Of a DNA stretch of 16,997 nt, positions 5,103 through 16,997 are shown piece by piece (positions within the stretch are counted from its first letter, which is position 1; every line of letters begins with the position of its first letter). The translations under genes and the position numbers were made by a program. The DNA comes from a virus (lineage: Duplodnaviria; Heunggongvirae; Uroviricota; Caudoviricetes), in IMG/VR virus record IMGVR_UViG_3300009008_000023, positions 64,001 through 80,997 of that record. One strand, 5' to 3'. Below the pieces are notes generated by a model. It was not told the origin of the DNA and searched no databases. It worked only from the letters and a program-made list of their open reading frames with translations.

Positions 5103-6410
5103 ATGAATAAACCTAATTTGTTTGTATGGTGTGACTTCCTTTGTGACACCGGGTTTGGTATAGTTGCAGAGAATCTTCTTGACGATATGCATGAAGATTA
5201 TGATGTAACGGTATTAGGAATTAATAATCACGGGTATAAAAAATACGATACTAGTAAGTATTTTGTGTATCCAATCCATTCCCCTGATATTCTTGGCTTA
5301 AAAGCCTTACCAAAGCTCTTAGAAGAAGAGCAGCCAGAAATTATTTTTCTCTTTCAAGACATTTTTCACATTAGTGCAGTCTTGAAGGATGTTAAAAAAG
5401 CATCCCCAAATTCAAAAATTGTAATCTATTTCCCCATTGATGGCTCACCAGTCTCCATCGCATGGAATAATGTTTTTGAAGATGAAGCAGTTGATGCTGT
5501 TATTACTTATACAGACTGGGCGATCGATCAGATCAAACAAACTTACCCAGACATTAAGTTTCCGATCCACAAACTCTATCATGGAGTGAATAATGAAGTG
5601 TTTTACCCCCATGCTCAACCCCATATTGAAAAGATCAGAAAAGTTTGGGGATGGAAAGGTAAGTTTGTTGCTTGTAATGTAAATCGTTTCCAACCTAGAA
5701 AAGCAATACCACTGGGCCTTCGTGCATTTTCAATGTTTGCAAAGGGTTATAAAGTGTGTAAGTGTGGAAACTGGATGCCTATTAATCGTACAAAGTGCGA
5801 TGTAAATATGTGTCCTGAAGAAGATATTATCGAAGTAGTTGAACGAGATCGTCAAGACGTAATGTTATATTTACACATGATGGCTCAAGAACGTGGCATG
5901 GGTCCAGGAAATGCAAACTTTCTACAGTCCCACTTATTAAATGCCGGGTTCGAGGATAAAGACGTTCAAAACATTCTACAAATTAATAAACGTAATATTT
6001 ATAAAGGCGAGGTACCAAACACTATTATAAATGATATTTATAATGGGTCTAACGTTAATATTTCTACTACGTTAGGAGAAGGTGCTGGATTATCCTTATT
6101 AGAGTCCGCAGCGTGTGGTACTCCAAGTATAGCGCCAAGAAATTCGGCAGTCCCTGAAATGCTTAACGGCACAGGAACATTAGTCAAGAATACTGGAGTG
6201 CTTAACCAAGCATTAGACAATGCCCATATTCGGCCTATTGTGGATATACCCGACTTCGTACGTGCATTAGATGCTGAATATGATAGATGGAAAGCTGCTG
6301 GAAAAGAAAAAGCTCTCGACACAGAATGTATCGAGAACATTAAAGAAAATTTCCAGTGGGGAGATAAAGTCGAAGCATTAAAGAAAGTATTTAAAGACGT
6401 ACTAACTTAA
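5103..6410 (+). CDS. Glycosyltransferase, GT-B fold, family GT4-like (435 aa)
   Basis: N-terminal DTGFGIVAENL, IYHGV-like LYHGV, NVNRFQPRK, and C-terminal E-x7-E motif GEGAGLSLLESAACGTP. A Cys-rich insert CKC-x10-C-x4-C is present. Confidence 0.88.
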   Translation: MNKPNLFVWCDFLCDTGFGIVAENLLDDMHEDYDVTVLGINNHGYKKYDTSKYFVYPIHSPDILGLKALPKLLEEEQPEIIFLFQDIFHISAVLKDVKKASPNSKIVIYFPIDGSPVSIAWNNVFEDEAVDAVITYTDWAIDQIKQTYPDIKFPIHKLYHGVNNEVFYPHAQPHIEKIRKVWGWKGKFVACNVNRFQPRKAIPLGLRAFSMFAKGYKVCKCGNWMPINRTKCDVNMCPEEDIIEVVERDRQDVMLYLHMMAQERGMGPGNANFLQSHLLNAGFEDKDVQNILQINKRNIYKGEVPNTIINDIYNGSNVNISTTLGEGAGLSLLESAACGTPSIAPRNSAVPEMLNGTGTLVKNTGVLNQALDNAHIRPIVDIPDFVRALDAEYDRWKAAGKEKALDTECIENIKENFQWGDKVEALKKVFKDVLT

Positions 6411-6638: not shown

Positions 6639-6780
6639 CCTCAGCCTCCTCGAACTGTTCAGTCCAAGAGGCTGATTTTTCTAATACATCAGCCTCATCA
6701 GAGTCAATTAATACTTGTTTAGTTTCTTGAGTTTCGGGATTAATGAAAATTCGGTATGTCCCATATTTAGTCATAGTCAT
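6622..6780 (-). CDS. Hypothetical acidic protein (52 aa, MTMTKYGTYRIFINPETQETKQVL...)
   Basis: The ATG overlaps the portal stop (TAATG coupling), and the ORF fills the gap and overlaps the next gene. It is below the ORF-track cutoff. Confidence 0.65.
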   Translation of the reverse strand: MTMTKYGTYRIFINPETQETKQVLIDSDEADVLEKSASWTEQFEEAEDESKG

Positions 6781-8663
6781 TATGCTTGTCCTTTAGTAGG
6801 CCCTTTTTTCTTTTCACCACTAACCTTTACTTCATCTTTTTTAGTAACGGGCTTCTTAGGTGCGCCTTGATCCCCTGTTAAACTAGCAGCCTCTTCCATT
6901 AATGGCATTGCAGACTGCATTAAACGCATCTCAATAGACTGCATTCGAGTATTAACTAAACCAGCAGTAATAGGCATTTTCTTACTTAACTGTGCCATTA
7001 CTTGCGCTTGCTGTGGTTCTGGGTAAAGCATAATTTCATTTGCATACTTATCAACAAGAGTTGCAGGGTCTTCAGGAATTGCTCCATGCTCCTCTGCTAA
7101 CTCATTCTGGAATAGTTCTGTCTGTAGTTTAATCTGCTCACGGTCGGCGGCGTCTTGCGCTCTAACCTGATAAGCGGCCATAATAACAGTAGCTTCGCCC
7201 TCAGCCATGGCTTTAGCCTTCATCTCATCAACCATATTCTCATAGAATTCTTTTCTACTCTTACTAATCTCTTCAGCTTCTACCTCAGAGTCATAACCAA
7301 ACTCATCAAGTAAGTTACTATCAGATAGTTTGCCTGTAGCATTAAGATTAATAGCCAGCTGTTTAGCTTCAGCGTCATCAGACATTTTAAACTTTTTAAA
7401 TTTAAGCTTAACATCAGGATAGCCTAGATTACCACGAATCTTAGGCACAACAAAGTGATTCAAGAAATCAAGTAACAGCTCTCTGTATGTAAGAAAATGG
7501 TTCTCTACAATACGTAAAGAAATACTAGAGCCTGTCCATGTAGTTCCACCCTTAATAAATTCAATGGGAACACCTAGTGAGTTAATAATCGTCTCTTCTA
7601 GGAACTTCATCTCAGGAGTTAGTAATAGCGCTCTTGCGTTTCCACCCAGTTCTTGGTACCCAATAGGAATGGGGAATATACCAATATGGTTAGGATCGCG
7701 TTTCCATTTTTTAATCTGCTCTTCCATTTTGCCACTCCACTTACCTAGATTCATCTGTGTAAATGGATCCATTTGTGTCGTATTGGCCGGGAAGATAGAT
7801 TTTTTAGGTATTACATGCTCATGGGCAATCGCTTCATTACCTTTCTTAAGCATTTGTAAGTAATAGATTTCTTTAAGAGCAGGAAGAATAATAGGCTTTC
7901 CCCAACCCATATCTTCTTCTGCTAATGTGGGTCTCTTAAAGTGGAAAAAGTTTAAGGGGTCTAATTCAATCTTTTTGTTTTCACGTAGAGAGTCTAAGAA
8001 TACTGCTGGTATAGTCTTCAGTATTTTTCTGTCCGCTTTAGTAATCTTTGATTTAATTTTGCCTGGAATTGTATAAAAGTATGTAATATCACCAGTTATC
8101 GGATTATAGTCAACATCGATACTTTCAGGAGAATACCGAACAAATTTTAAGTTCTTTACGTTTTTTGGATATGTATCACGAATAGTAAACTTTGCCTCAC
8201 TAGCTTGACAGTGTGGGCAAGTTCCATAGATCACATATTTTTTTAGCTTAATTTTTTTAAGGTCATCAAACTTAATTTCTTCTGCACACTCACTACACTT
8301 TAAAAAGCGTATTGGAGTCATTTGTGCTGCTACGAAAGCATTTCCGTAAGTGAAGTAATCAAGACCAATGTCTATAAGTAAGCTTTTAATTTTTAAGTTT
8401 TCATTTAATATTGCATTGTATTGCTGTTTAGCTGGTTGCCCTATTTCTCCATCATATAGTATCTCTGTAATAGGGTACTCCGCTAACTTTGTAACTACAT
8501 TATTTAAGAAAGAGTTAGTATAAAAGAAACTCCTACAATATTTAAATAATGTTTTAATGTTCTTAGGAACAAAGGTACTTGCAATATCAAAGAAAGGGTT
8601 TGGATATTTTTTGATATTACCGCTGGTAAAATCAGTTTCAGTGGCGTTTCGTACGACTGCCAT
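6780..8663 (-). CDS. Putative phage portal protein (627 aa)
   Basis: Portal-like segments: helical YTNSFLNNVVTKLAEYPIT, FFHFKR...GWGKPIILPALKEI, HVIPKKSIF and II-x-SLGVP. It also has a CxxC...CxxC insert and a long coiled-coil/low-complexity C-terminus. SD GAGAGGA upstream. The call is by pattern recognition only. Confidence 0.7.
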   Translation of the reverse strand: MAVVRNATETDFTSGNIKKYPNPFFDIASTFVPKNIKTLFKYCRSFFYTNSFLNNVVTKLAEYPITEILYDGEIGQPAKQQYNAILNENLKIKSLLIDIGLDYFTYGNAFVAAQMTPIRFLKCSECAEEIKFDDLKKIKLKKYVIYGTCPHCQASEAKFTIRDTYPKNVKNLKFVRYSPESIDVDYNPITGDITYFYTIPGKIKSKITKADRKILKTIPAVFLDSLRENKKIELDPLNFFHFKRPTLAEEDMGWGKPIILPALKEIYYLQMLKKGNEAIAHEHVIPKKSIFPANTTQMDPFTQMNLGKWSGKMEEQIKKWKRDPNHIGIFPIPIGYQELGGNARALLLTPEMKFLEETIINSLGVPIEFIKGGTTWTGSSISLRIVENHFLTYRELLLDFLNHFVVPKIRGNLGYPDVKLKFKKFKMSDDAEAKQLAINLNATGKLSDSNLLDEFGYDSEVEAEEISKSRKEFYENMVDEMKAKAMAEGEATVIMAAYQVRAQDAADREQIKLQTELFQNELAEEHGAIPEDPATLVDKYANEIMLYPEPQQAQVMAQLSKKMPITAGLVNTRMQSIEMRLMQSAMPLMEEAASLTGDQGAPKKPVTKKDEVKVSGEKKKGPTKGQA

Positions 8664-9151
8664 TAATTATTTCCTCTCTTCATATATTCTAAAATAGCAA
8701 GGTAATGAAATGCCTGTATACCAATGTAGTCTTCTTCTAAAGGAAAGGGACCGTCTGTTGCTCGGTTCATAACAGAAGTTATGACAGGATTTTCTAATCC
8801 AATGTCTAAAGGGTAAAACCAAAGACCATAATCATTGAAGATGTACTTAATGTACATTAAGACTTCATGTGAAAGCTCAATATCTTTATGAAGAGTGTTT
8901 ATTATACCGATAGCTTTCCAGATATGTTTTGGCTCACATCCTTCAACCTTTGCAGAGTCGGGACTAATTCCATTTAAAACAAGAACTGCATTTTCAAATA
9001 CATGCAAATCTTCGTAAGCTGCCCTAGTATTGCGTAACAAGGAAATCACTTGCAACTTTTCCACTTCTAGATTAGAAAGAAGTGGAAATTGGTTGCGAAT
9101 GGTCTCAGGTTCTACAACATCTAAGGATTCAGCGAGTTCAAATAAATTCAT
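8663..9151 (-). CDS. Hypothetical protein (162 aa), likely morphogenesis-associated
   Basis: Its stop overlaps the portal start, and it abuts the upstream gene's stop. No family recognised. Confidence 0.8.
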   Translation of the reverse strand: MNLFELAESLDVVEPETIRNQFPLLSNLEVEKLQVISLLRNTRAAYEDLHVFENAVLVLNGISPDSAKVEGCEPKHIWKAIGIINTLHKDIELSHEVLMYIKYIFNDYGLWFYPLDIGLENPVITSVMNRATDGPFPLEEDYIGIQAFHYLAILEYMKRGNN

Positions 9152-9520
9152 TTATAGTGTTGTTTTAGTGTATTTTTTATCGAAGTTTTTAAGCTGGCTT
9201 TTGACTGCGCCATAGGTTGCGAAACTAATAGCTGCGGTAGGAACAATCTTAAGCTGTTTAGCACCCATACCACTATAATACTTACCTACTCTTTTATTCC
9301 AGAGTTTAGCGGCGGGTACAAAGTGCTTTAATACTTTTCTTCTTTTCCAGCCAGAATGTCTAAGCTTTCTAAACTTTCCTTTTGATTGTGCTGAAGTAGC
9401 CATCGTATCAAGTGGGTGTGTAATGGCTGTTGCAACACCACCACCAGCAGCTCCCGCAATTAAATCATCAAAAGAGCTGTTTCGTTTAGCCTGTTTATTA
9501 AAACCTAGCTCATGTAACAT
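9152..9520 (-). CDS. Single mitochondrial-carrier (Solcar/SLC25)-like repeat protein (122 aa)
   Basis: Odd-helix-like LIAGAAGGGVATAITHPLDTMAT (Px[DE] signature, K/R replaced by A) and even-helix-like YYSGMGAKQLKIVPTAAISFATYGAVKSQL, separated by a basic loop. Confidence 0.6.
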   Translation of the reverse strand: MLHELGFNKQAKRNSSFDDLIAGAAGGGVATAITHPLDTMATSAQSKGKFRKLRHSGWKRRKVLKHFVPAAKLWNKRVGKYYSGMGAKQLKIVPTAAISFATYGAVKSQLKNFDKKYTKTTL

Positions 9521-10578
9521 TAGAACAACTTTCTGATTTCATCCCTAATAGGACGAGGTAAGCTTTCATACACATCTAAAGCGTCGGGCCCTTGAAGTTC
9601 TTTAACAGCATCACTACCAACAATTACTGATAAATCATCTGCTGGTAATGTATGTAGATCTGATTCTTTAATTAAGGTACCGTCAACTGTACGCTCTGAA
9701 ATACTAGTATCTAGTGTTGATAGAATAGGATCTTCAATGCCCTTAGAGTACATTCTGCACAAGTTAGCCTGCTTATCAAGTTCATAAAGAGCTTTAATTG
9801 TTTCTGAAGTTCCCTTATTATCTGCTTCTTTTAGAAGTGTATCATAAGCTTCTAACAGCTCTTCATCTGAATCAAGCAAGTAGCTTTTTCTGATTTGTAT
9901 ATGATCATAGAAATCAGGATTAAAGGTTGACGAACGATGTGCATACTTAGTAATCGAGTGTGTAGTTAAGTTAACGTTCTGCTCTTGTGCAGCTTCTAAC
10001 GTATTTAGCGCAAACAAAGCTCGGTCTGTGACAGAAAAGTTTTTAGAGTAACTATCAAAATAAGCAGCAGCCTTTGTAATATCTTCTTCAGTATTTAAAG
10101 GATACTTATTCTCTAAAGCATACTTCCCTTCAACAGCCAGACTAGCTCGTTTATTAATGAAATCTTTTTCATTAAGTTCTGTAATATTAATTACATTATC
10201 AGTATACTTTGTTGCTTGGAACTCTTGTAAAGACTCGGGTACATTTACTCCAAAGTTTTTAGCGGCACAAGTTAAATTGGTTGCTGCTACTTTAATAACT
10301 TCATCAGGAAGCTTATCTTTGTTGCTATCTAAGATAGCTAAATTAAGCTCTGTCAACTCTTTATTATAACTAGCATATTTTTTAATTGAACCGGTGTGAG
10401 GATGAAAGAGTATTACAGCGAAATTTTTATCATCCATCGCCTCTTGTTCTTCTAAACTAGGAATATAAGCAGTCTTCGCTTCTTCAGTTAAAGGCTCTAC
10501 AAGTTCGGCAACCTTTTCTAAATTGCCTTCAATAACTTCATCAGTTATATCTAGAGGTATGGATAATAATTGTTTCAT
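9520..10578 (-). CDS. Hypothetical acidic protein (352 aa), putative head/scaffold-associated
   Basis: Coupled to both neighbours in the portal operon; contains 10 KxA motifs. No catalytic motif recognised. Confidence 0.75.
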   Translation of the reverse strand: MKQLLSIPLDITDEVIEGNLEKVAELVEPLTEEAKTAYIPSLEEQEAMDDKNFAVILFHPHTGSIKKYASYNKELTELNLAILDSNKDKLPDEVIKVAATNLTCAAKNFGVNVPESLQEFQATKYTDNVINITELNEKDFINKRASLAVEGKYALENKYPLNTEEDITKAAAYFDSYSKNFSVTDRALFALNTLEAAQEQNVNLTTHSITKYAHRSSTFNPDFYDHIQIRKSYLLDSDEELLEAYDTLLKEADNKGTSETIKALYELDKQANLCRMYSKGIEDPILSTLDTSISERTVDGTLIKESDLHTLPADDLSVIVGSDAVKELQGPDALDVYESLPRPIRDEIRKLF

Positions 10579-11172
10579 CTACGCCTCTTCCTTTCTTCGT
10601 TGAATATAATTATATAACGTAGTTCCGGGACAGGCTGGCTTACCAAAGTCTTGGTGACCATAAACATCTGCCGCAGTAAAATTTAAACGTATTTCTAAGT
10701 GAGTAAGTAAGTATTCTAAAGCATCTAATTGTGCTTGAGTAGGATCTCCATCGCTACGTGCTACACTCTCATAACTAAAATCACCTGCAACTAAAATTCC
10801 AACAGACTTAGTATTTTGGCCCTTAGTATGCCAAACTAAATCTGTTAATGAGTTACAAGCTAGAATTTGTCCTTGACGATCGATTGCATAATGATACGCA
10901 ATGTGGGGAGCGCCTTCTTTTGATAAATGATTCTCGGGTCCTGGCGTTATATGATAATTATTAATAGCAGCAACTGAGCCCTGAGAAAGGGCTTGATGCA
11001 CAATAATTTTTTGAATTTTAGATAGAGGGCGCCGACCCCATTTACGTAATGGATTCCAAGGTAGACTTTGAATAGCATCTACAATAGTAAATTGTTTAGG
11101 CTTTTCTGGTTCAGAGGGAGTCTTTTTAAAGAAATCCTTAACCATATACCAAATAAGTGATAAATCAATCAT
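10579..11172 (-). CDS. N-acetylmuramoyl-L-alanine amidase (Amidase_2/T7-lysozyme-like endolysin)
   Basis: IIVHQA, IAYHYAID, VWHTKGQN, SVGILVAGDF, YGHQDF and ACPG match the Zn-binding His/His/Cys pattern of Amidase_2. Confidence 0.9.
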   Translation of the reverse strand: MIDLSLIWYMVKDFFKKTPSEPEKPKQFTIVDAIQSLPWNPLRKWGRRPLSKIQKIIVHQALSQGSVAAINNYHITPGPENHLSKEGAPHIAYHYAIDRQGQILACNSLTDLVWHTKGQNTKSVGILVAGDFSYESVARSDGDPTQAQLDALEYLLTHLEIRLNFTAADVYGHQDFGKPACPGTTLYNYIQRRKEEA

Positions 11173-11510
11173 TAGTTACTCACCCAACCTAGAGTTGCAA
11201 GAGCCATTAATACCCACTCACTTATAGTAGGCCATCTCCAAAACCCTAGATTTTCATTCTCATCTAACTCTTTATATTCGAGTATTAGTGAGTCTTGAAG
11301 CGCTATAATCTCAGCATTAATTGAATCTGCTTCCGCACTAGTTTGTAATGTTACTAGTAAAGTATCAAATTCAGCTTCAGTAAATACCCAAGAAGACTCG
11401 TCTAGACATTCTCCTTCGACTTTAAATTCTTGGGCACTTGCTAGTGGTGCAAATAATAGACTACTTAAGACGATCAAGAAGATCGAGATACTTGTCACGC
11501 TTTTCATCAT
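11172..11510 (-). CDS. Secreted/membrane protein (signal peptide plus C-terminal hydrophobic tail); possible lysis accessory
   Basis: Signal peptide ending in ASA-Q, an acidic helical middle and C-terminal WVLMALATLGWV. It sits directly upstream of the endolysin. Confidence 0.6.
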   Translation of the reverse strand: MMKSVTSISIFLIVLSSLLFAPLASAQEFKVEGECLDESSWVFTEAEFDTLLVTLQTSAEADSINAEIIALQDSLILEYKELDENENLGFWRWPTISEWVLMALATLGWVSN

Positions 11511-11733
11511 TCGGGATACCTTCTTTAATTTCCTTTTTAAGCTCTTCCGCTTTTTCTGTTTTACCAGATGCTTTTAAGTGTTCAAGCTTATTAAGTTGTC
11601 GCTCGATAAGGTTTCTCTTTAACTCAACTTCAGCATCATCCAAGGGCATAAACTTTTTCTTTAGAAAATAAAGAAAAATAAATGCAGCTACAAGAGAAAG
11701 TTGTTTAACGAGGTATTTAGTATTTTTTTCCAT
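11461..11733 (-). CDS. N-terminally anchored coiled-coil membrane protein (90 aa); holin- or i-spanin-like candidate
   Basis: One TM segment LSLVAAFIFLYFL followed by a KKK motif and a charged coiled coil. It overlaps the next gene by 50 bp. Confidence 0.6.
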   Translation of the reverse strand: MEKNTKYLVKQLSLVAAFIFLYFLKKKFMPLDDAEVELKRNLIERQLNKLEHLKASGKTEKAEELKKEIKEGIPNDEKRDKYLDLLDRLK

Positions 11734-12064: not shown

Positions 12065-13504
12065 TTAAATAAGTTCTTTTATTAGCTTTTTTCCTTGTAA
12101 CCCGTGCCAATGAAATATTGTGGCAGCAGGATTTTCTCCGTCAACACGAACCCAATGGTGCTCTTCTGGTATTACTTCGGGCTGATATCTTTTTTCAAAC
12201 ATCATTCGGACTAAGAGTTCATTATCTCCTCTATGCTCGCCATGATGTTTGGGAGTGTACTCACACCAGTTTTCAACAACAGGGTCACCATGAGATACAG
12301 CAATAACACCGTTCTGATACATAATTTCTCCTGGTTTAAAGATATCCGGTCTACCAAACATGTAGTTTCTGTCAAGTGCTAGAGCAATCTTTTTGTTCCC
12401 GTACCCGTCTATGAGAGGTTGTAAGTTCTGCTGTACTTGACAATCTAAGTCTATCCACAGTAACTTCTTAGCCCTAGCTTCCAGGAAAAAGAATGGCTTT
12501 TTAAACCACACTTTTTCATATTTAATACTGGGATCTAATTCAATAACTTCACCACGATCAAGGCACCAATCTCTAGCTTTGTTGCTCATTCCAAAGTCAC
12601 AAAAATAAAGTGGGTAATTATATGAGTTTTTGATGTAGTTGTCATACCACCACTCTAACATCCACTCTTGTTCTTCATCACACCCTGTTAGAACCGCTGT
12701 TTCATACTCAAGTGGCTCATCAGTCCAGTGATAGGGCTTCTTAACACGCGATGCGTGCATAATATTACCTGGAGGCAACAGTGCCCTTTCTTGGCTTTTT
12801 ACAAGAGCACACTCAAGAGGTACATACTCAATATACTTGTTAATGGGAGAATCTGGAGTACATGAAATTAGAGTAGTTTTACTTCCGTCTGTCCACGTAT
12901 TGGATTGTTCTACAAACCACTTAACAAAATCAGTTTGTGTTTTATAGAACCTTTTGTTTTTATCGCGTTCTTCATCTGAGAGTACTCTGTCATCATAGTA
13001 GTCTTTTGATCCGCCCATGTCACAGCCTAACAAATGAATACGCTTGAATCCCATATGCATAAGAATGTGTAAGGTAGTGATGAAAGTGCTTTTTTTCCAA
13101 ATGAAGACTTCATTAGCACCGTGATTGGAAGGATTAAAAATTTGGTTTTCGTTATCGTACTTTTTATTATCAGCCCAATACACATTAGGATAATACTTTA
13201 CAAGCTTCCCATTAACGTGCATCTTTTCACTACGACCGCCTCTAGCGATCTTCATAAACGGCTCATTCCAGAGGTTACGATCATAACACTCTGGGTAATC
13301 CATTCCTACCCAGAGATGGGGTTTGATTTTGGGATATGTAGTGTTAATACCTACAACATACACACCTAATTTATCTTGTAAATCTTCGTTCTTTACATCT
13401 GCTAAATTAGGTCCGGGGCAACAGAGGTAAGCATCTAAACCTGCGTTGTCTCGGTAAAAATTGTCTTTTACTAGACCGTTCCCGGTCTCGTGCCAAATTG
13501 CCAT
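12065..13504 (-). CDS. Two-domain glycosylation protein: DUF115/MptE-like N-terminal domain fused to a GT8-like GT-A domain
   Basis: N-half: YLCCPGPNL, VVGINTT, IHLLGCDMG. C-half: WFKKP, LLWIDLDC (DxD), YQNGVIAV and terminal IFHWHG. Confidence 0.7.
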   Translation of the reverse strand: MAIWHETGNGLVKDNFYRDNAGLDAYLCCPGPNLADVKNEDLQDKLGVYVVGINTTYPKIKPHLWVGMDYPECYDRNLWNEPFMKIARGGRSEKMHVNGKLVKYYPNVYWADNKKYDNENQIFNPSNHGANEVFIWKKSTFITTLHILMHMGFKRIHLLGCDMGGSKDYYDDRVLSDEERDKNKRFYKTQTDFVKWFVEQSNTWTDGSKTTLISCTPDSPINKYIEYVPLECALVKSQERALLPPGNIMHASRVKKPYHWTDEPLEYETAVLTGCDEEQEWMLEWWYDNYIKNSYNYPLYFCDFGMSNKARDWCLDRGEVIELDPSIKYEKVWFKKPFFFLEARAKKLLWIDLDCQVQQNLQPLIDGYGNKKIALALDRNYMFGRPDIFKPGEIMYQNGVIAVSHGDPVVENWCEYTPKHHGEHRGDNELLVRMMFEKRYQPEVIPEEHHWVRVDGENPAATIFHWHGLQGKKLIKELI

Positions 13505-13507
13505 TTT

Positions 13508-14251
13508 TTAAAAGTTTGGTTTAAAAGGATCGTGTGATAGTGTTGTATGATCCTTAACTAAATTAGTGCACTGGTTACGTTTATAACTCCGGTAATGTTT
13601 TCCATTACCGCCCTGCTCCCAGTTACGTTCTGTCATAATTTTTCGTGTGCCATGCTCAAGGCTGCGAATTGGGTAATGTTTTAAAATATATTTCTTTCTA
13701 GATAATTGCCAAGGGCGCCATTCTTTTCTGTGACGGCCTCTTCCAATTCGGTCGCCCATTGCAGGGATTAACCAGCCTCTGTTAATTCCTCCCCATATAG
13801 ATGAACGTTTAAAACCTCTAAATTGCACTCGGTCAAAGTAATTATCAGCATTATTATCATCAGCGTCTGTAATCCAGTATTCGTGAATATCTGCCCTAAT
13901 AACCCCAAATCCTGCTTTTATGTCTGCATGTATAGCCTCAGCCACAGTAGAAAAAGTTCTAGGTGGAACTAATACCTCATCTGCGTCAATCCAAGTAACC
14001 CAGCCATACTCAGGATAGGATTCATTTATAAACTTACAAATTATATCATATAAATCAGGTGCGCCCGGAGCCGAGAACGGCACTTTTCTATCTACATAGT
14101 GGTAAGTTGCGCCAGAATCCTTTAACACTTCTTTAGTATTATCAGTTGATCCATGATCAAACACATGTACATCATGGCCTACTAAACATTTAACTGCATT
14201 AAGGACACAGTCTTCTTCGTTATAAGTGTGCACAATTCCCAGTAACTTCAT
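13508..14251 (-). CDS. Glycosyltransferase family 2-like (247 aa)
   Basis: VHTYNEED, VFDHGSTDNT, WIDADE (DxD) and ILKHY. Confidence 0.85.
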   Translation of the reverse strand: MKLLGIVHTYNEEDCVLNAVKCLVGHDVHVFDHGSTDNTKEVLKDSGATYHYVDRKVPFSAPGAPDLYDIICKFINESYPEYGWVTWIDADEVLVPPRTFSTVAEAIHADIKAGFGVIRADIHEYWITDADDNNADNYFDRVQFRGFKRSSIWGGINRGWLIPAMGDRIGRGRHRKEWRPWQLSRKKYILKHYPIRSLEHGTRKIMTERNWEQGGNGKHYRSYKRNQCTNLVKDHTTLSHDPFKPNF

Positions 14252-14928
14252 CTCGCTAACTTATCAATCTCTCCCCATCCACGGAGGTGAGCGTGTTTAA
14301 CCCAGGCAGAGTGTACAATTACTCCGTGCCCACCCTTTTTCTTCATGAGATTAAACCAGCGGTTGTCATTACCCCGGAAAGGTCTAGTTGGGTCAAAATA
14401 ACAGTGAGTGTTAAAGCGATTGGCTTCCATTGTTTTAGCTGTAGCTGCCCAACAAAAACCATTAATTGGGTGCGCCGGTCTAACACCATCTGTAATAGTT
14501 ACGCCCTCATGTGGACCAGGAGCCATTTGCTCTCTATATCCACATTTATTTGTAAGTGGACCATAAGATGCTAGTGTATCTTCTTCGTAGGCAAGGTCTA
14601 AAAGATTTGTAATACTTTCCGTGAGTTCGACATCATGATTTTGAAAAAGGATAACATCACATTCACAGTCTATAAAAGTTTTTGTAGCCGCTTCCCATGT
14701 TCCCGTAAGTCCACCATTAGCAATTTGGTCATCAATGCGAATATACTTTATATCAAAATACTCTTCGGAAATTGATAACACTCCAGGATCTGTCGACTCA
14801 TTGTCATAGACAAGTATATCCCTAGGTTCAGGGATATACTTAAGTGCTGATTCAATTGCTTTTTTAACGTGATCCCAGTTATTATGCGCTGTAATTACTA
14901 CGCCTGTTTTATATTCTTTTTGTTCCAT
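14248..14928 (-). CDS. Glycosyltransferase family 2-like (226 aa)
   Basis: VVITAHNN, LVYDNESTD, LFQNHDVE, NGFCWA and VKH. It has an ATGA-type overlap with the next gene. Confidence 0.82.
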   Translation of the reverse strand: MEQKEYKTGVVITAHNNWDHVKKAIESALKYIPEPRDILVYDNESTDPGVLSISEEYFDIKYIRIDDQIANGGLTGTWEAATKTFIDCECDVILFQNHDVELTESITNLLDLAYEEDTLASYGPLTNKCGYREQMAPGPHEGVTITDGVRPAHPINGFCWAATAKTMEANRFNTHCYFDPTRPFRGNDNRWFNLMKKKGGHGVIVHSAWVKHAHLRGWGEIDKLAR

Positions 14929-14931
14929 AAC

Positions 14932-16997
14932 TTATCCACAGTGATAGGTACAACCCACAAATGCTTTCTTGTAGGTAGTTCCATTATACTCAAATTCTTC
15001 TACTTTGTAAAGATCTTTTTGCTCTAAATCAAAGTCACAATCCATAGTGATTTTAGCCACTGTATAATTATGTAAAAGATCGTCCGCTTGACGCATTCCG
15101 TAACCTGGGATTTTTGAAGAAGTTATATAATCGCCGTTGGTGAAGTTGCCATTGATATTTGTTACCCAAATTGCTCCTTCTCCTAGAGCATTAACAAAGA
15201 CTCGGTCATCACCTTTTTCTTTGTTAAAAGTTGTTACCCACGCTCCAACGGCATACTGTCGTTCAAGATTGTCAGGATCTTCTACATCCGATACAACACC
15301 ATACACTGCAACATCTTTGGCTACAGAGGACAGTTGAATTTTTGGCAGTGCTTCACTTATAACGATATTATCGATTTGTTTAGTTTTTGCCTTAACACAG
15401 TACTCACCTGTAGCACTGACAATTAATCCAATATTTTGGTCCTGGTAATAATCAATTGTACCATCTACAGGAAGGCTACGATGTTGTCCTGTAAAGTCAA
15501 GAGCGCCCTGATCAGAAGTATGTGATATGAAACCTCCGCTATTAGTACCATTATATCTGAAGTTTAAAAATGGGTATGTCGTAGCGCCTGCATAACCTAC
15601 ATACACTCGCCATTCTTCTGCTAACTCAGCTGAGTTAGCTAATACCATGCAATAGGGCTCTTCATCATCATAGTCAGTGGCCGGGGCTATAAGTGTTACA
15701 GCGCCTTGTGACCTACTCGACCCATACCCTAAAGGCGCGCCAAATCCATGGCTAGTGCCCTCATTAGAGAATACTCTGAATAATGAAGGACCGTTAACTC
15801 TTACCGCATAACTCCCAGATCCCACAGAAGAAGTTGTATGAATAGTTTCTCCTGCATCATGAACAATTTCTACCGCGTGTACTCTATGACTCATATCATC
15901 GGCACGATGTGATAACACCCTAATTGCTGGCTCAAAGAAATCCGAATCTTCTGCTCTATTTGAAATAAATAGCGTTGAACCATTTGGTCCTGCAAAAAGA
16001 GAGGCGCGCTCAGTCTCAGGGTAACTCCCGTGACGAACTTGAATCGCTGGACGCTCACCGAGGACCCCTTTATATTCTCCAGTTAGAGTAGGACCATAAC
16101 CATAAAACGGGTCATCGTCCATTACGAATACATTTTCACTATCTACTGAATGCATTCGCAGCGCATTATCATCTGAGTCATTAATAACAATTCTTTTCCC
16201 AGTTTCAGCTGTTTGAAATGTAGAGCCAGTAATCGTGGAACCTGTAATGTCACTTGCTTCTATATCTCCATGGATTACCAACTCACCCTGTTGGCCCACC
16301 CAAGCTAATGAGTGTGATCCAGGAGCGTCTGCTAAGGAGTTAAGAAAGAAATTACCCTCATCATCCATTAAACTCCACCATGTAGAGTCACCTGCCACAA
16401 CTGTAACATATCCGAGATAACTATCTGTCATTAACAGACCGTCATGATCTGTAGGAACAGCAACATCAAGGAAATCATAAGATTGGTTATCGTAGCTAAT
16501 ACTAAGAGTCCATGTTAAATATTTTTCAAATACTCCACTATCACCTTGAGCAAATCGTCCTGTAACTAGTAAAGAAACATAAAAGATAGCATTGTTACCG
16601 CCATCAATATCTAAGGCAGAAACATTTATTTGAGCCCGATCACTGACATCAGTAATATTAACAGTAATGTCTCCAGTAGGATAATAAGACAAAACTGCTA
16701 CTGTATAGTAACCTACTAATGAGGGTGTTCCACCTCCACTATCATACTCATAACTATATTCACCATCAATACCGGCATAAACAACAGCTTCTAATTCGGA
16801 CTCACTTATTAATAAAGCGCCATCAGTATCTAAGGGTATAGTGACATTATTAGGAGTAATGAAAGAATCGCTGAAAGTTCCAGTTGTCGCAAATCCGACA
16901 ATTAGTTCTTGTCCTGCTGCAAGTTCTTGATCTTCAGGCATTGTTCCATCTAAACCACCGCTACCACCACTAACTAACTCAAGATATAATTGAATCC
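14932..16997 (-). CDS. Tail fibre/spike-like protein, C-terminal part (5'-truncated), with a terminal Peptidase_G2/IMC-like chaperone domain
   Basis: The frame stays open upstream of ATG16941 to the window edge (IQLYLELVSGGSGGLDGTM). The protein is beta-rich and G/S/T-rich, with fibre-like ITGSTITGSTFQTAETGKRIVIN. The C-terminus reads DFTGQHR...GEGAIWV...GDYITSS...GYGMRQADDLLHNYTVAKITMDCDF...VGCTYHCG. Confidence 0.72.
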   Translation of the reverse strand, partial: IQLYLELVSGGSGGLDGTMPEDQELAAGQELIVGFATTGTFSDSFITPNNVTIPLDTDGALLISESELEAVVYAGIDGEYSYEYDSGGGTPSLVGYYTVAVLSYYPTGDITVNITDVSDRAQINVSALDIDGGNNAIFYVSLLVTGRFAQGDSGVFEKYLTWTLSISYDNQSYDFLDVAVPTDHDGLLMTDSYLGYVTVVAGDSTWWSLMDDEGNFFLNSLADAPGSHSLAWVGQQGELVIHGDIEASDITGSTITGSTFQTAETGKRIVINDSDDNALRMHSVDSENVFVMDDDPFYGYGPTLTGEYKGVLGERPAIQVRHGSYPETERASLFAGPNGSTLFISNRAEDSDFFEPAIRVLSHRADDMSHRVHAVEIVHDAGETIHTTSSVGSGSYAVRVNGPSLFRVFSNEGTSHGFGAPLGYGSSRSQGAVTLIAPATDYDDEEPYCMVLANSAELAEEWRVYVGYAGATTYPFLNFRYNGTNSGGFISHTSDQGALDFTGQHRSLPVDGTIDYYQDQNIGLIVSATGEYCVKAKTKQIDNIVISEALPKIQLSSVAKDVAVYGVVSDVEDPDNLERQYAVGAWVTTFNKEKGDDRVFVNALGEGAIWVTNINGNFTNGDYITSSKIPGYGMRQADDLLHNYTVAKITMDCDFDLEQKDLYKVEEFEYNGTTYKKAFVGCTYHCG

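Follow-up and report, generated by a model that had tools for sequence, protein, structure and literature searches.

The window, i.e. the whole stretch of 16,997 nucleotides that was analysed, is the final 17 kb of an 81-kb IMG/VR virus record (CheckV completeness ~40%) of a phage found in marine metagenomes. Its minus strand carries an operon of abutting or overlapping late genes, which are read in the order tail-fibre-like protein, two GT2 glycosyltransferases, a 479-aa, a 99-aa, a 90-aa and a 112-aa protein, an Amidase_2 endolysin, a 352-aa protein, a 122-aa protein, a 162-aa protein and the portal. The gene of the 122-aa protein, which is the subject of this analysis and is called the one-repeat gene below, runs on the minus strand from the ATG at 9520 to the stop at 9152. 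It and its closest neighbours are the following:

11461-11733, minus strand: 90-aa protein, TM segment at the N-terminus, charged helical tail (KD19 1.54)
11172-11510, minus strand: 112-aa protein with a signal-like N-terminus and a hydrophobic C-terminus, no lipobox (KD19 2.26)
10579..11172, minus strand: Amidase_2 endolysin, in the same operon and upstream of the one-repeat gene
9520..10578, minus strand: 352-aa acidic (-27) phage protein; its stop codon and the start of the one-repeat gene overlap
9152..9520, minus strand: 122-aa one-repeat SLC25/Solcar protein (P0001) with a net charge of +19, supported by Pfam, phmmer, a family profile and dN/dS
8663..9151, minus strand: 162-aa acidic protein, whose start abuts the stop of the one-repeat gene
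6780..8663, minus strand: portal, 627 aa (phrog_16240, E 3.7e-9); its start and the stop of the 162-aa gene overlap

The portal is thus the second gene downstream of the one-repeat gene, as a preliminary description of the DNA, which gave no strand, had stated; the gene of the 162-aa protein lies between them. The 352-aa protein resembles uncharacterised phage proteins of ~350 aa and gives a weak DUF6582 hint. The endolysin and the 112-aa and 90-aa proteins likely make up a lysis set, within which the overlapping 112-aa/90-aa pair are candidates for spanin-like or holin-like proteins. Further upstream in the operon, the two GT2 glycosyltransferases and the 479-aa protein (weak MptE-like hint) occupy 12065-14928 (-), and the very acidic (-60) tail-fibre-like protein (14932-16997, -) runs past the window end; on the related contig L004 it measures 1671 aa. 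A GT1 glycosyltransferase is found at 5103-6410 (+). Located between the genes for tail fibre, lysis and portal, these four genes may serve to glycosylate the virion or the surface of the host. Within the portal, residues ~122-152 form a CxxC...CxxC insertion (C-S-E-C ... C-P-H-C), which looks like a zinc-ribbon and is conserved in the 63%-identical portal of the related contig L011. The other end of the window encodes a reverse transcriptase (RVT_1, E 9e-22; 1759-2685, +) just downstream of a VWA-domain protein (3-1406, +). This arrangement is conserved in the sister and 34%-identity lineages introduced below, and related contigs have a bpMoxR-type AAA ATPase on the far side of the VWA gene. 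No template/variable repeat pair for the reverse transcriptase was found in the window or in the 81-kb record, so that no diversity-generating retroelement is confirmed.

With the portals of Salmonella phage Arash and Vibrio phage D181, the portal of the window shares 30-33% identity; its relation to the phage G portal is distant. The source is a large phage of the Arash/D181 kind with a host that has peptidoglycan. As the 81-kb record is ~40% complete, the phage genome should comprise roughly 200 kb. Because the Amidase_2 endolysin implies peptidoglycan, the host is taken to be a bacterium without mitochondria. The 122-aa protein occurs, identical letter for letter, on 9 contigs from several marine samples. 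The sequencing runs that contain the sequence are DNA only and come from one marine study, with no RNA run listed. The same record includes RtcB and RNA ligase genes as well as an adenylosuccinate-synthetase-like gene (L039:1620-2651, +) that matches the PHROG '2-aminooxy adenylosuccinate synthetase' (E 1e-58). The latter is possibly PurZ-like, and in that case the phage DNA might contain modified adenine.

The preliminary description had recognised in the 122-aa protein both helices of one Solcar repeat, the repeat unit of the mitochondrial carriers (SLC25), and had proposed a search with PF00153 (Mito_carr) as a check. Both strings on which this was based are indeed there: AGAAGGGVATAITHPLDT occupies residues 22-39, and residues 82-107 read Y-S-G...VP-T-A-AISFATY...K. 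The PF00153 match is significant (E 6.6e-12) and reaches 45.4 bits, compared to a curated cut-off of 22.3 bits; it aligns residues 14-111 with positions 3-93 of the 96 profile positions. An exhaustive phmmer search of 1.84 billion representatives returned 869 matches at E<=1e-3, nearly all of which are three-repeat proteins with a match in each repeat. When a profile of the one-repeat family was compared with the bovine ADP/ATP carrier 1okc, all three AAC repeats were aligned (E 4.8e-21). Profiles built separately from eukaryotic repeats 1, 2 and 3 gave 59-66 bits on the 122-aa protein, with repeats 1 and 3 scoring about equally and above repeat 2, all within a few bits. Whereas an SLC25 chain has three tandem repeats and six TM helices in ~300 aa, one repeat in 122 aa is found here. 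At the level of the sequence, the protein is confirmed as a stand-alone single repeat of the SLC25 fold encoded in a phage late operon, as had been supposed.

Proteins of this kind form a family of at least 20 members with a length of 99-155 aa (one member has 211 aa), and one domain was found in each of 20. Identity within the family ranges from 22 to 74%. All members lie on viral or metagenomic contigs and none comes from a named organism. A tblastn search against 50,697 deposited phage records gave no match, close relatives in prokaryote genome contigs were not found, and PHROGs has no family for the protein. A 'mitochondrial carrier homolog' annotation in FNU1 is a chance BLAST match (E 8.5). 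Two subfamilies can be told apart: subfamily A has the N-terminus MLxELGFxK, the other has PLDTISDxQKQWRN and a longer linker. We calculated a tree from the 20 one-repeat proteins and 108 repeats of 36 eukaryotic carriers, in which the 20 one-repeat proteins fall on one side of a branch with an SH-aLRT of 97. The phylogeny that the preliminary description had suggested therefore yields one clade set apart from the eukaryotic repeats, but the point at which it attaches to repeats 1-3 is weakly supported. The phage clade is placed beside a few repeat-3 rows, and a pre-triplication and a derived origin are not separated. The one-repeat family is monophyletic and is so far found only on phage or metagenome DNA. 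A comparison with the 74%-identical gene of a sister phage gives a dN/dS of ~0.06 (pN 0.17, pS 0.74), i.e. the one-repeat gene is under strong purifying selection.

To locate the functional residues of carriers, the family was mapped onto bovine AAC1 by profile alignment, using the motif definitions of PMC7611774. The 122-aa protein is divided as follows:

9494..9520, minus strand: N-terminal tag MLHELGFNK (residues 1-9), conserved in subfamily A
9383..9478, minus strand: odd-numbered carrier helix (residues 15-46) with G23, G27, P36, D38 and Q45, and with A41 at the salt-bridge Lys/Arg position
9278..9382, minus strand: very basic linker with a short helix (residues 47-81), the counterpart of the loop and helix on the matrix side of a carrier repeat
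9167..9277, minus strand: Y82-x-G84 linker motif and even-numbered helix (residues 82-118) with K91, P94, A97xxxA101 and Y103-G-x-x-K107

The small-residue motifs piGpixpiG and pixxxpi allow close packing of carrier helices (PMC7611774). Both are present, the former on the odd helix as A22-G23-A-A-G26-G27, in which G23 and G27 are invariant or nearly so across the family, and the latter on the even helix as A97xxxA101, in which A97 is invariant. The kink proline P36 is conserved, as are the Y82-x-G84 linker and P94, and 20/20 members have the acidic residue (D38). A glutamine occupies the brace position P+9 (Q45 here) in 11/20 members, and the remainder have Q at P+8 and P+10. K88 is nearly invariant and K91 invariant; K91 aligns to R79 (repeat 1), G182 (repeat 2) and R279 (repeat 3) of bovine AAC1. 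R79 and R279 are the equivalents of R88 and R287 of TtAac, which are contact points I and III (PMC7611774). A substrate contact-point position on the even helix thus appears to be retained as K91.

The residues of the gates present a different picture. A Lys/Arg at the matrix salt-bridge position P+5 is found in 0/20 family members vs 98/101 sampled eukaryotic repeats; instead, the family has Ser (8), Ala (6), Ile (3), Gln (2) or Gly (1). In the 122-aa protein the signature reads P36-L-D-T-M-A41, just as the preliminary description had given it, and the altered salt-bridge gate that was deduced from this one protein is a trait of the whole family. The cytoplasmic motif reads Y103-G-A-V-K107 and not [YF][DE]xx[KR]. 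Its acidic residue is absent here and in most members, and few members have a complete motif (e.g. YEVIK, YDFIK). As far as the alignment can tell, the helix-shaping and packing residues are conserved and the residues of the two gates are not. Due to the absence of the P+5 Lys/Arg and the degenerate cytoplasmic motif, neither salt-bridge network can form, and the protein is thus not expected to perform alternating access like a canonical SLC25 antiporter.

Structure prediction yields a helical hairpin. The AF2 monomer obtained with a 49-row alignment (mean pLDDT 71.5) has helices at residues 15-53, 69-81 and 85-118, which is the helix order of a carrier repeat. In a Foldseek search of the PDB, this model ranked the ADP/ATP carrier 6gci_A first with a TM of 0.61 by query and an E-value of 0.64, which is not significant, and UCP2 second with a likewise non-significant E-value. 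With a 19-row alignment the pLDDT decreased to 61.7, and the Foldseek PDB search with this model returned nothing. An exhaustive structural search with VIA-align, again using the 49-row model, delivered generic helical hairpins (Z<=6.1); carriers were absent from the top rows, which for a two-helix query carries no information. Since the 49-row alignment includes carrier repeats, the AF2 model adds little beyond the sequence evidence, and the hairpin that it predicts with middling confidence is a generic fold. A homotrimer prediction of the 122-aa protein scored 0.00 in a run in which the protein's own fold was also uncertain, and so speaks neither for nor against self-association.

The explanation that we favour, though tentatively and with limited confidence, is that the protein is a self-associating membrane-active hairpin, probably a trimer, which forms a gateless carrier-like bundle for head assembly or genome delivery; insertion, oligomeric state, topology and function are what we infer here. 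The hairpin would consist of the kinked odd helix (~15-46, with P36-L-D38), the basic matrix-side linker with its short helix (47-81) and the even helix (82-118), and would insert into the cytoplasmic membrane of the host, its basic loop facing the cytoplasm. A basic loop without acidic residues fits the cytoplasmic side according to the positive-inside rule; residues 47-81 include 14 Lys/Arg and zero acidic residues. As the packing motifs, the contact-point lysine and a carrier-like hydropathy are conserved, we take the hairpins to pack against each other like carrier domains, and in the simplest case three copies would rebuild the six-helix bundle. Such a bundle without gates would be a conduit or a membrane anchor and not an antiporter. 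The position in the head/lysis operon and the N-terminal tag point to the head-assembly or genome-delivery stage of infection as the time of action, and the protein might be carried in the capsid and enter the membrane from the outside. It counts against this explanation that, to our knowledge, mitochondrial carriers require a dedicated insertion machinery that is absent from bacteria. The peak hydropathy and the extreme charge of the protein, which are taken up below, likewise speak against it. PF00153 has one match in the 81-kb record, and the genes flanking the one-repeat gene are unrelated to carriers. Because ~60% of the phage genome is outside the record, additional repeat genes and hetero-oligomers may nevertheless exist.

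A capsid-loaded cargo or ejection protein is a possible, if somewhat doubtful, alternative. MLxxLGFxK would then be an address tag into the head, which the protein shares with other very basic proteins; it would exit together with the DNA and insert from the periplasm, where the membrane potential would pull the basic loop inward, as happens with carrier modules in mitochondria. With regard to the final structure this is compatible with the favoured gateless bundle, from which it differs in route and timing. The pattern MLxxLGFxK starts exactly one other ORF in the 81-kb record, with the sequence MLRTLGFEK:

G000:C1:446-1672 (= L025:446-1672), minus strand: 408-aa tagged protein, +47, Gly/Ala/Lys-rich, 71 kb from the one-repeat gene and outside the window

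This protein has Gly/Ala-rich hydrophobic stretches and belongs to no Pfam or PHROG family. Its gene comes after the gene of a 579-aa acidic protein and near a CIS_spike_tip gene, and both tagged genes overlap the stop codon of the acidic gene upstream of them. In the sister phage both proteins retain the tag (MLQELGFEKQS and MLRDLGFEKEA; 7/11 identical, E 0.006), and apart from it there is no similarity between the one-repeat and the 408/427-aa proteins. The sister copy of the tagged gene (427 aa, L033:9547-10830) precedes the genes of several very basic proteins (+13 to +58), and the tagged gene has spike genes as well as a group of genes for very basic proteins beside it. Moreover, a 2020-aa protein with several RNA-polymerase beta-subunit matches is encoded in the same record outside the window (L039:9236-15298, -), and jumbo phages that inject virion proteins encode giant RNA-polymerase beta-like proteins of this sort. 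However, the tagged proteins found are two in number, and two record fragments of the 34%-identity lineage (32% and 23% complete) contain neither a 408-aa homologue nor a second tagged ORF. No head protease or capsid gene was detected among ten large ORFs scanned in the rest of the record, which leaves no cleavage motif for comparison, and other roles of the tag are conceivable, e.g. as a helix at the membrane interface or as a binding site for a chaperone. An MNK[LI]A similarity in L021 was considered as a counterpart of the tag and rejected as weak and not above null. By analogy, the tag pattern resembles phage capsid-targeting tags, which with two tagged proteins makes it a lead, and the virion protein proposed in the preliminary description gains some support from it.

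The gene neighbourhood could also indicate a portal membrane anchor or assembly factor, i.e. an inner-membrane protein that nucleates prohead assembly and reuses the carrier fold as a hairpin only. In T4, gp40 assists the gp20 portal. The genes of the 352-aa, one-repeat and 162-aa proteins and of the portal form a tight operon with overlapping starts and stops, and the order one-repeat gene/160-aa gene/portal is conserved in three phage sub-lineages, namely the window phage, its 74%-identity sister and a third lineage. In the latter the order is retained at identities of 63% for the portal, 52% for the 160-aa protein and 34% for the one-repeat protein. However, the cultured relatives Arash and D181, whose portals are homologous, lack a one-repeat gene at this place. 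In the more distant contigs L016 and L021 the one-repeat gene is followed by ~600-aa genes, but BLASTP, PHROGs and Atlas did not identify these as portals. We thus claim portal synteny for the window's own lineage only. An anchor would furthermore leave the conservation of the contact-point lysine and of the packing motifs unexplained, and we consider this function rather unlikely. The gene upstream of the one-repeat gene varies: it encodes the 352-aa acidic protein in the window and an actin-like protein in the L011/L018 lineage. The actin-fold protein (L018:6744-7733, L011:6203-7198) has the N-terminus LDCGTGN and matches Pfam Volactin and, faintly, MreB_Mbl; in this lineage a LysM protein precedes the actin-fold gene, replacing the amidase.

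A true minimal transporter, in which a homotrimer would carry e.g. phosphate or nucleotides by alternating access for the phage metabolism, would account for the invariant K91 aligned to contact points I and III, for the nearly invariant K88 and for the retained packing motifs, and nucleotide-metabolism genes such as the adenylosuccinate-synthetase-like gene are present. Nevertheless, we regard it as quite improbable: the matrix network is missing, with K/R at P+5 in 0/20 members, and the cytoplasmic motif is Y-G-x-x-K here and degenerate in most of the family. The gene is located among late structural and lysis genes and not among metabolic ones. In addition, a three-fold-symmetric site is ill-suited to asymmetric substrates, and carriers have evolved asymmetric sites (PMC7611774). 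Among the functions named in the preliminary description (a transporter or pore formed by homotrimerisation, a membrane-inserting virion protein that acts at ejection, a relic of SLC25 origins), the canonical gated transporter therefore ranks last in likelihood, since neither gate network is complete.

Even by the standard of carriers, the protein is extremely basic (net charge +19 in 122 residues), and this would suit a nucleic-acid-binding or capsid-internal protein as well. The protein could thus be a soluble, very basic hairpin of carrier ancestry that has no membrane role and binds DNA or acidic proteins, either as an internal head protein or as the chaperoned partner of the acidic protein encoded upstream. 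Its hydropathy peaks at 0.97, which does not exceed the values of soluble proteins in the window and is below the heuristic cut-off of 1.5 for TM-like segments used in that scan, and the protein is paired with an upstream acidic (-27) gene in the same way as the other tagged basic protein. However, across the family both helices match those of real carriers in hydrophobicity, with median KD19 values for the odd/even helices of 1.27/0.97 vs 1.21-1.31/0.88-1.17 in genuine carrier repeats. The Gly/Ala packing motifs and the kink Pro, which serve the packing of TM helices in carriers, are conserved. There is accordingly little probability in our view that the protein is soluble.

It is very unlikely that the protein is a holin, an antiholin or another membrane protein that times lysis. 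It is small, has two helices with charged ends and shares its operon with the Amidase_2 endolysin two genes upstream, but the 90-aa and 112-aa proteins that flank the endolysin are better candidates (KD19 1.54 and 2.26), whereas by this hydropathy heuristic the one-repeat protein appears to lack a strongly hydrophobic segment (peak KD19 0.97); moreover, no endolysin is called near the one-repeat gene in L016, L017 and L021. A recently captured, functionless fragment of a eukaryotic or giant-virus carrier gene, for which it speaks that eukaryotic carriers are the only other homologues, can practically be dismissed, as it is contradicted by the dN/dS of ~0.06, by the conserved synteny and by a diverse (22-74%) and monophyletic family with its own conserved N-terminus and motif changes.

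The explanation of mitochondrial carriers as the triplication of a ~100-residue unit dates from the early 1980s. We give a small chance to the phage family being a descendant or a sister of the single-repeat ancestor from before the triplication, still homotrimeric today. If this were true, its members would be living examples of that state, and the SLC25 fold would predate mitochondria in the bacterial and phage world. If the trimer is true, the protein would be the smallest natural version of the carrier fold and would provide both a direct test of the triplication hypothesis and a symmetric, bacterially encoded system in which carrier folding, lipid binding, insertion and gating can be studied. 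The family-wide loss of the gate residue suggests that the fold serves here in a different way, be it as pore, as anchor or as a membrane protein that is delivered, and phages would in that case have a membrane protein of a new kind. The presence of a eukaryote-type fold in phages of bacteria also raises the question of the direction of gene transfer. In our literature search we found no paper that describes natural one-repeat carrier proteins, in phages or otherwise. The SLC25 family is known, but a stand-alone one-repeat form from phages that has lost the gate residue family-wide appears in none of the papers searched. The one-repeat phage protein is thus a natural test case for how carriers are built and how they arose.

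With respect to the tag, the closest known system is the capsid-targeting sequence of T4, which sits on the internal proteins IPI-III and Alt. As in T4, a short N-terminal peptide is common to very basic proteins of one phage that are otherwise unrelated. However, the tag described here is on two proteins and has an unrelated sequence, and no protease motif was identified for it.

Three-repeat SLC25 homologues are known from outside the eukaryotes. One of them is VMC1 of mimivirus. Others are LncP and Lpg1137 of Legionella, which are delivered effectors (PMC5621508). Like the phage protein, all of these are carrier-family proteins encoded by a parasite of cells, but they are three-repeat chains with six helices that act in the mitochondria of a eukaryotic host, while the phage host is bacterial.

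Prokaryotic 'fraction' transporters such as SemiSWEET oligomerise and so rebuild a fold that is a single chain in eukaryotes. Should the trimer model prove right, the phage protein would resemble them in having one structural repeat per gene and in forming its bundle by self-association. The two have no relation in sequence or fold, however. The oligomer is established for SemiSWEET and inferred for the phage protein, which moreover is without the gating residues of its full-length relatives.

The SLC25 carriers themselves (1okc, TtAac 6gci, UCP1/UCP2) have three repeats in a chain of ~300 aa, compared to one repeat in 122 aa in the phage protein. The latter is also far more basic, has an N-terminal peptide of its own and is encoded by a bacteriophage, and its family has no K/R at the matrix salt-bridge position and a degenerate cytoplasmic motif. 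What both have in common is a repeat unit that is homologous from end to end, including the kink Pro, the acidic residue and the P+9 Gln, the piGpixpiG and pixxxpi motifs, the [YWF]xG linker, a basic contact-point residue and a comparable hydropathy.
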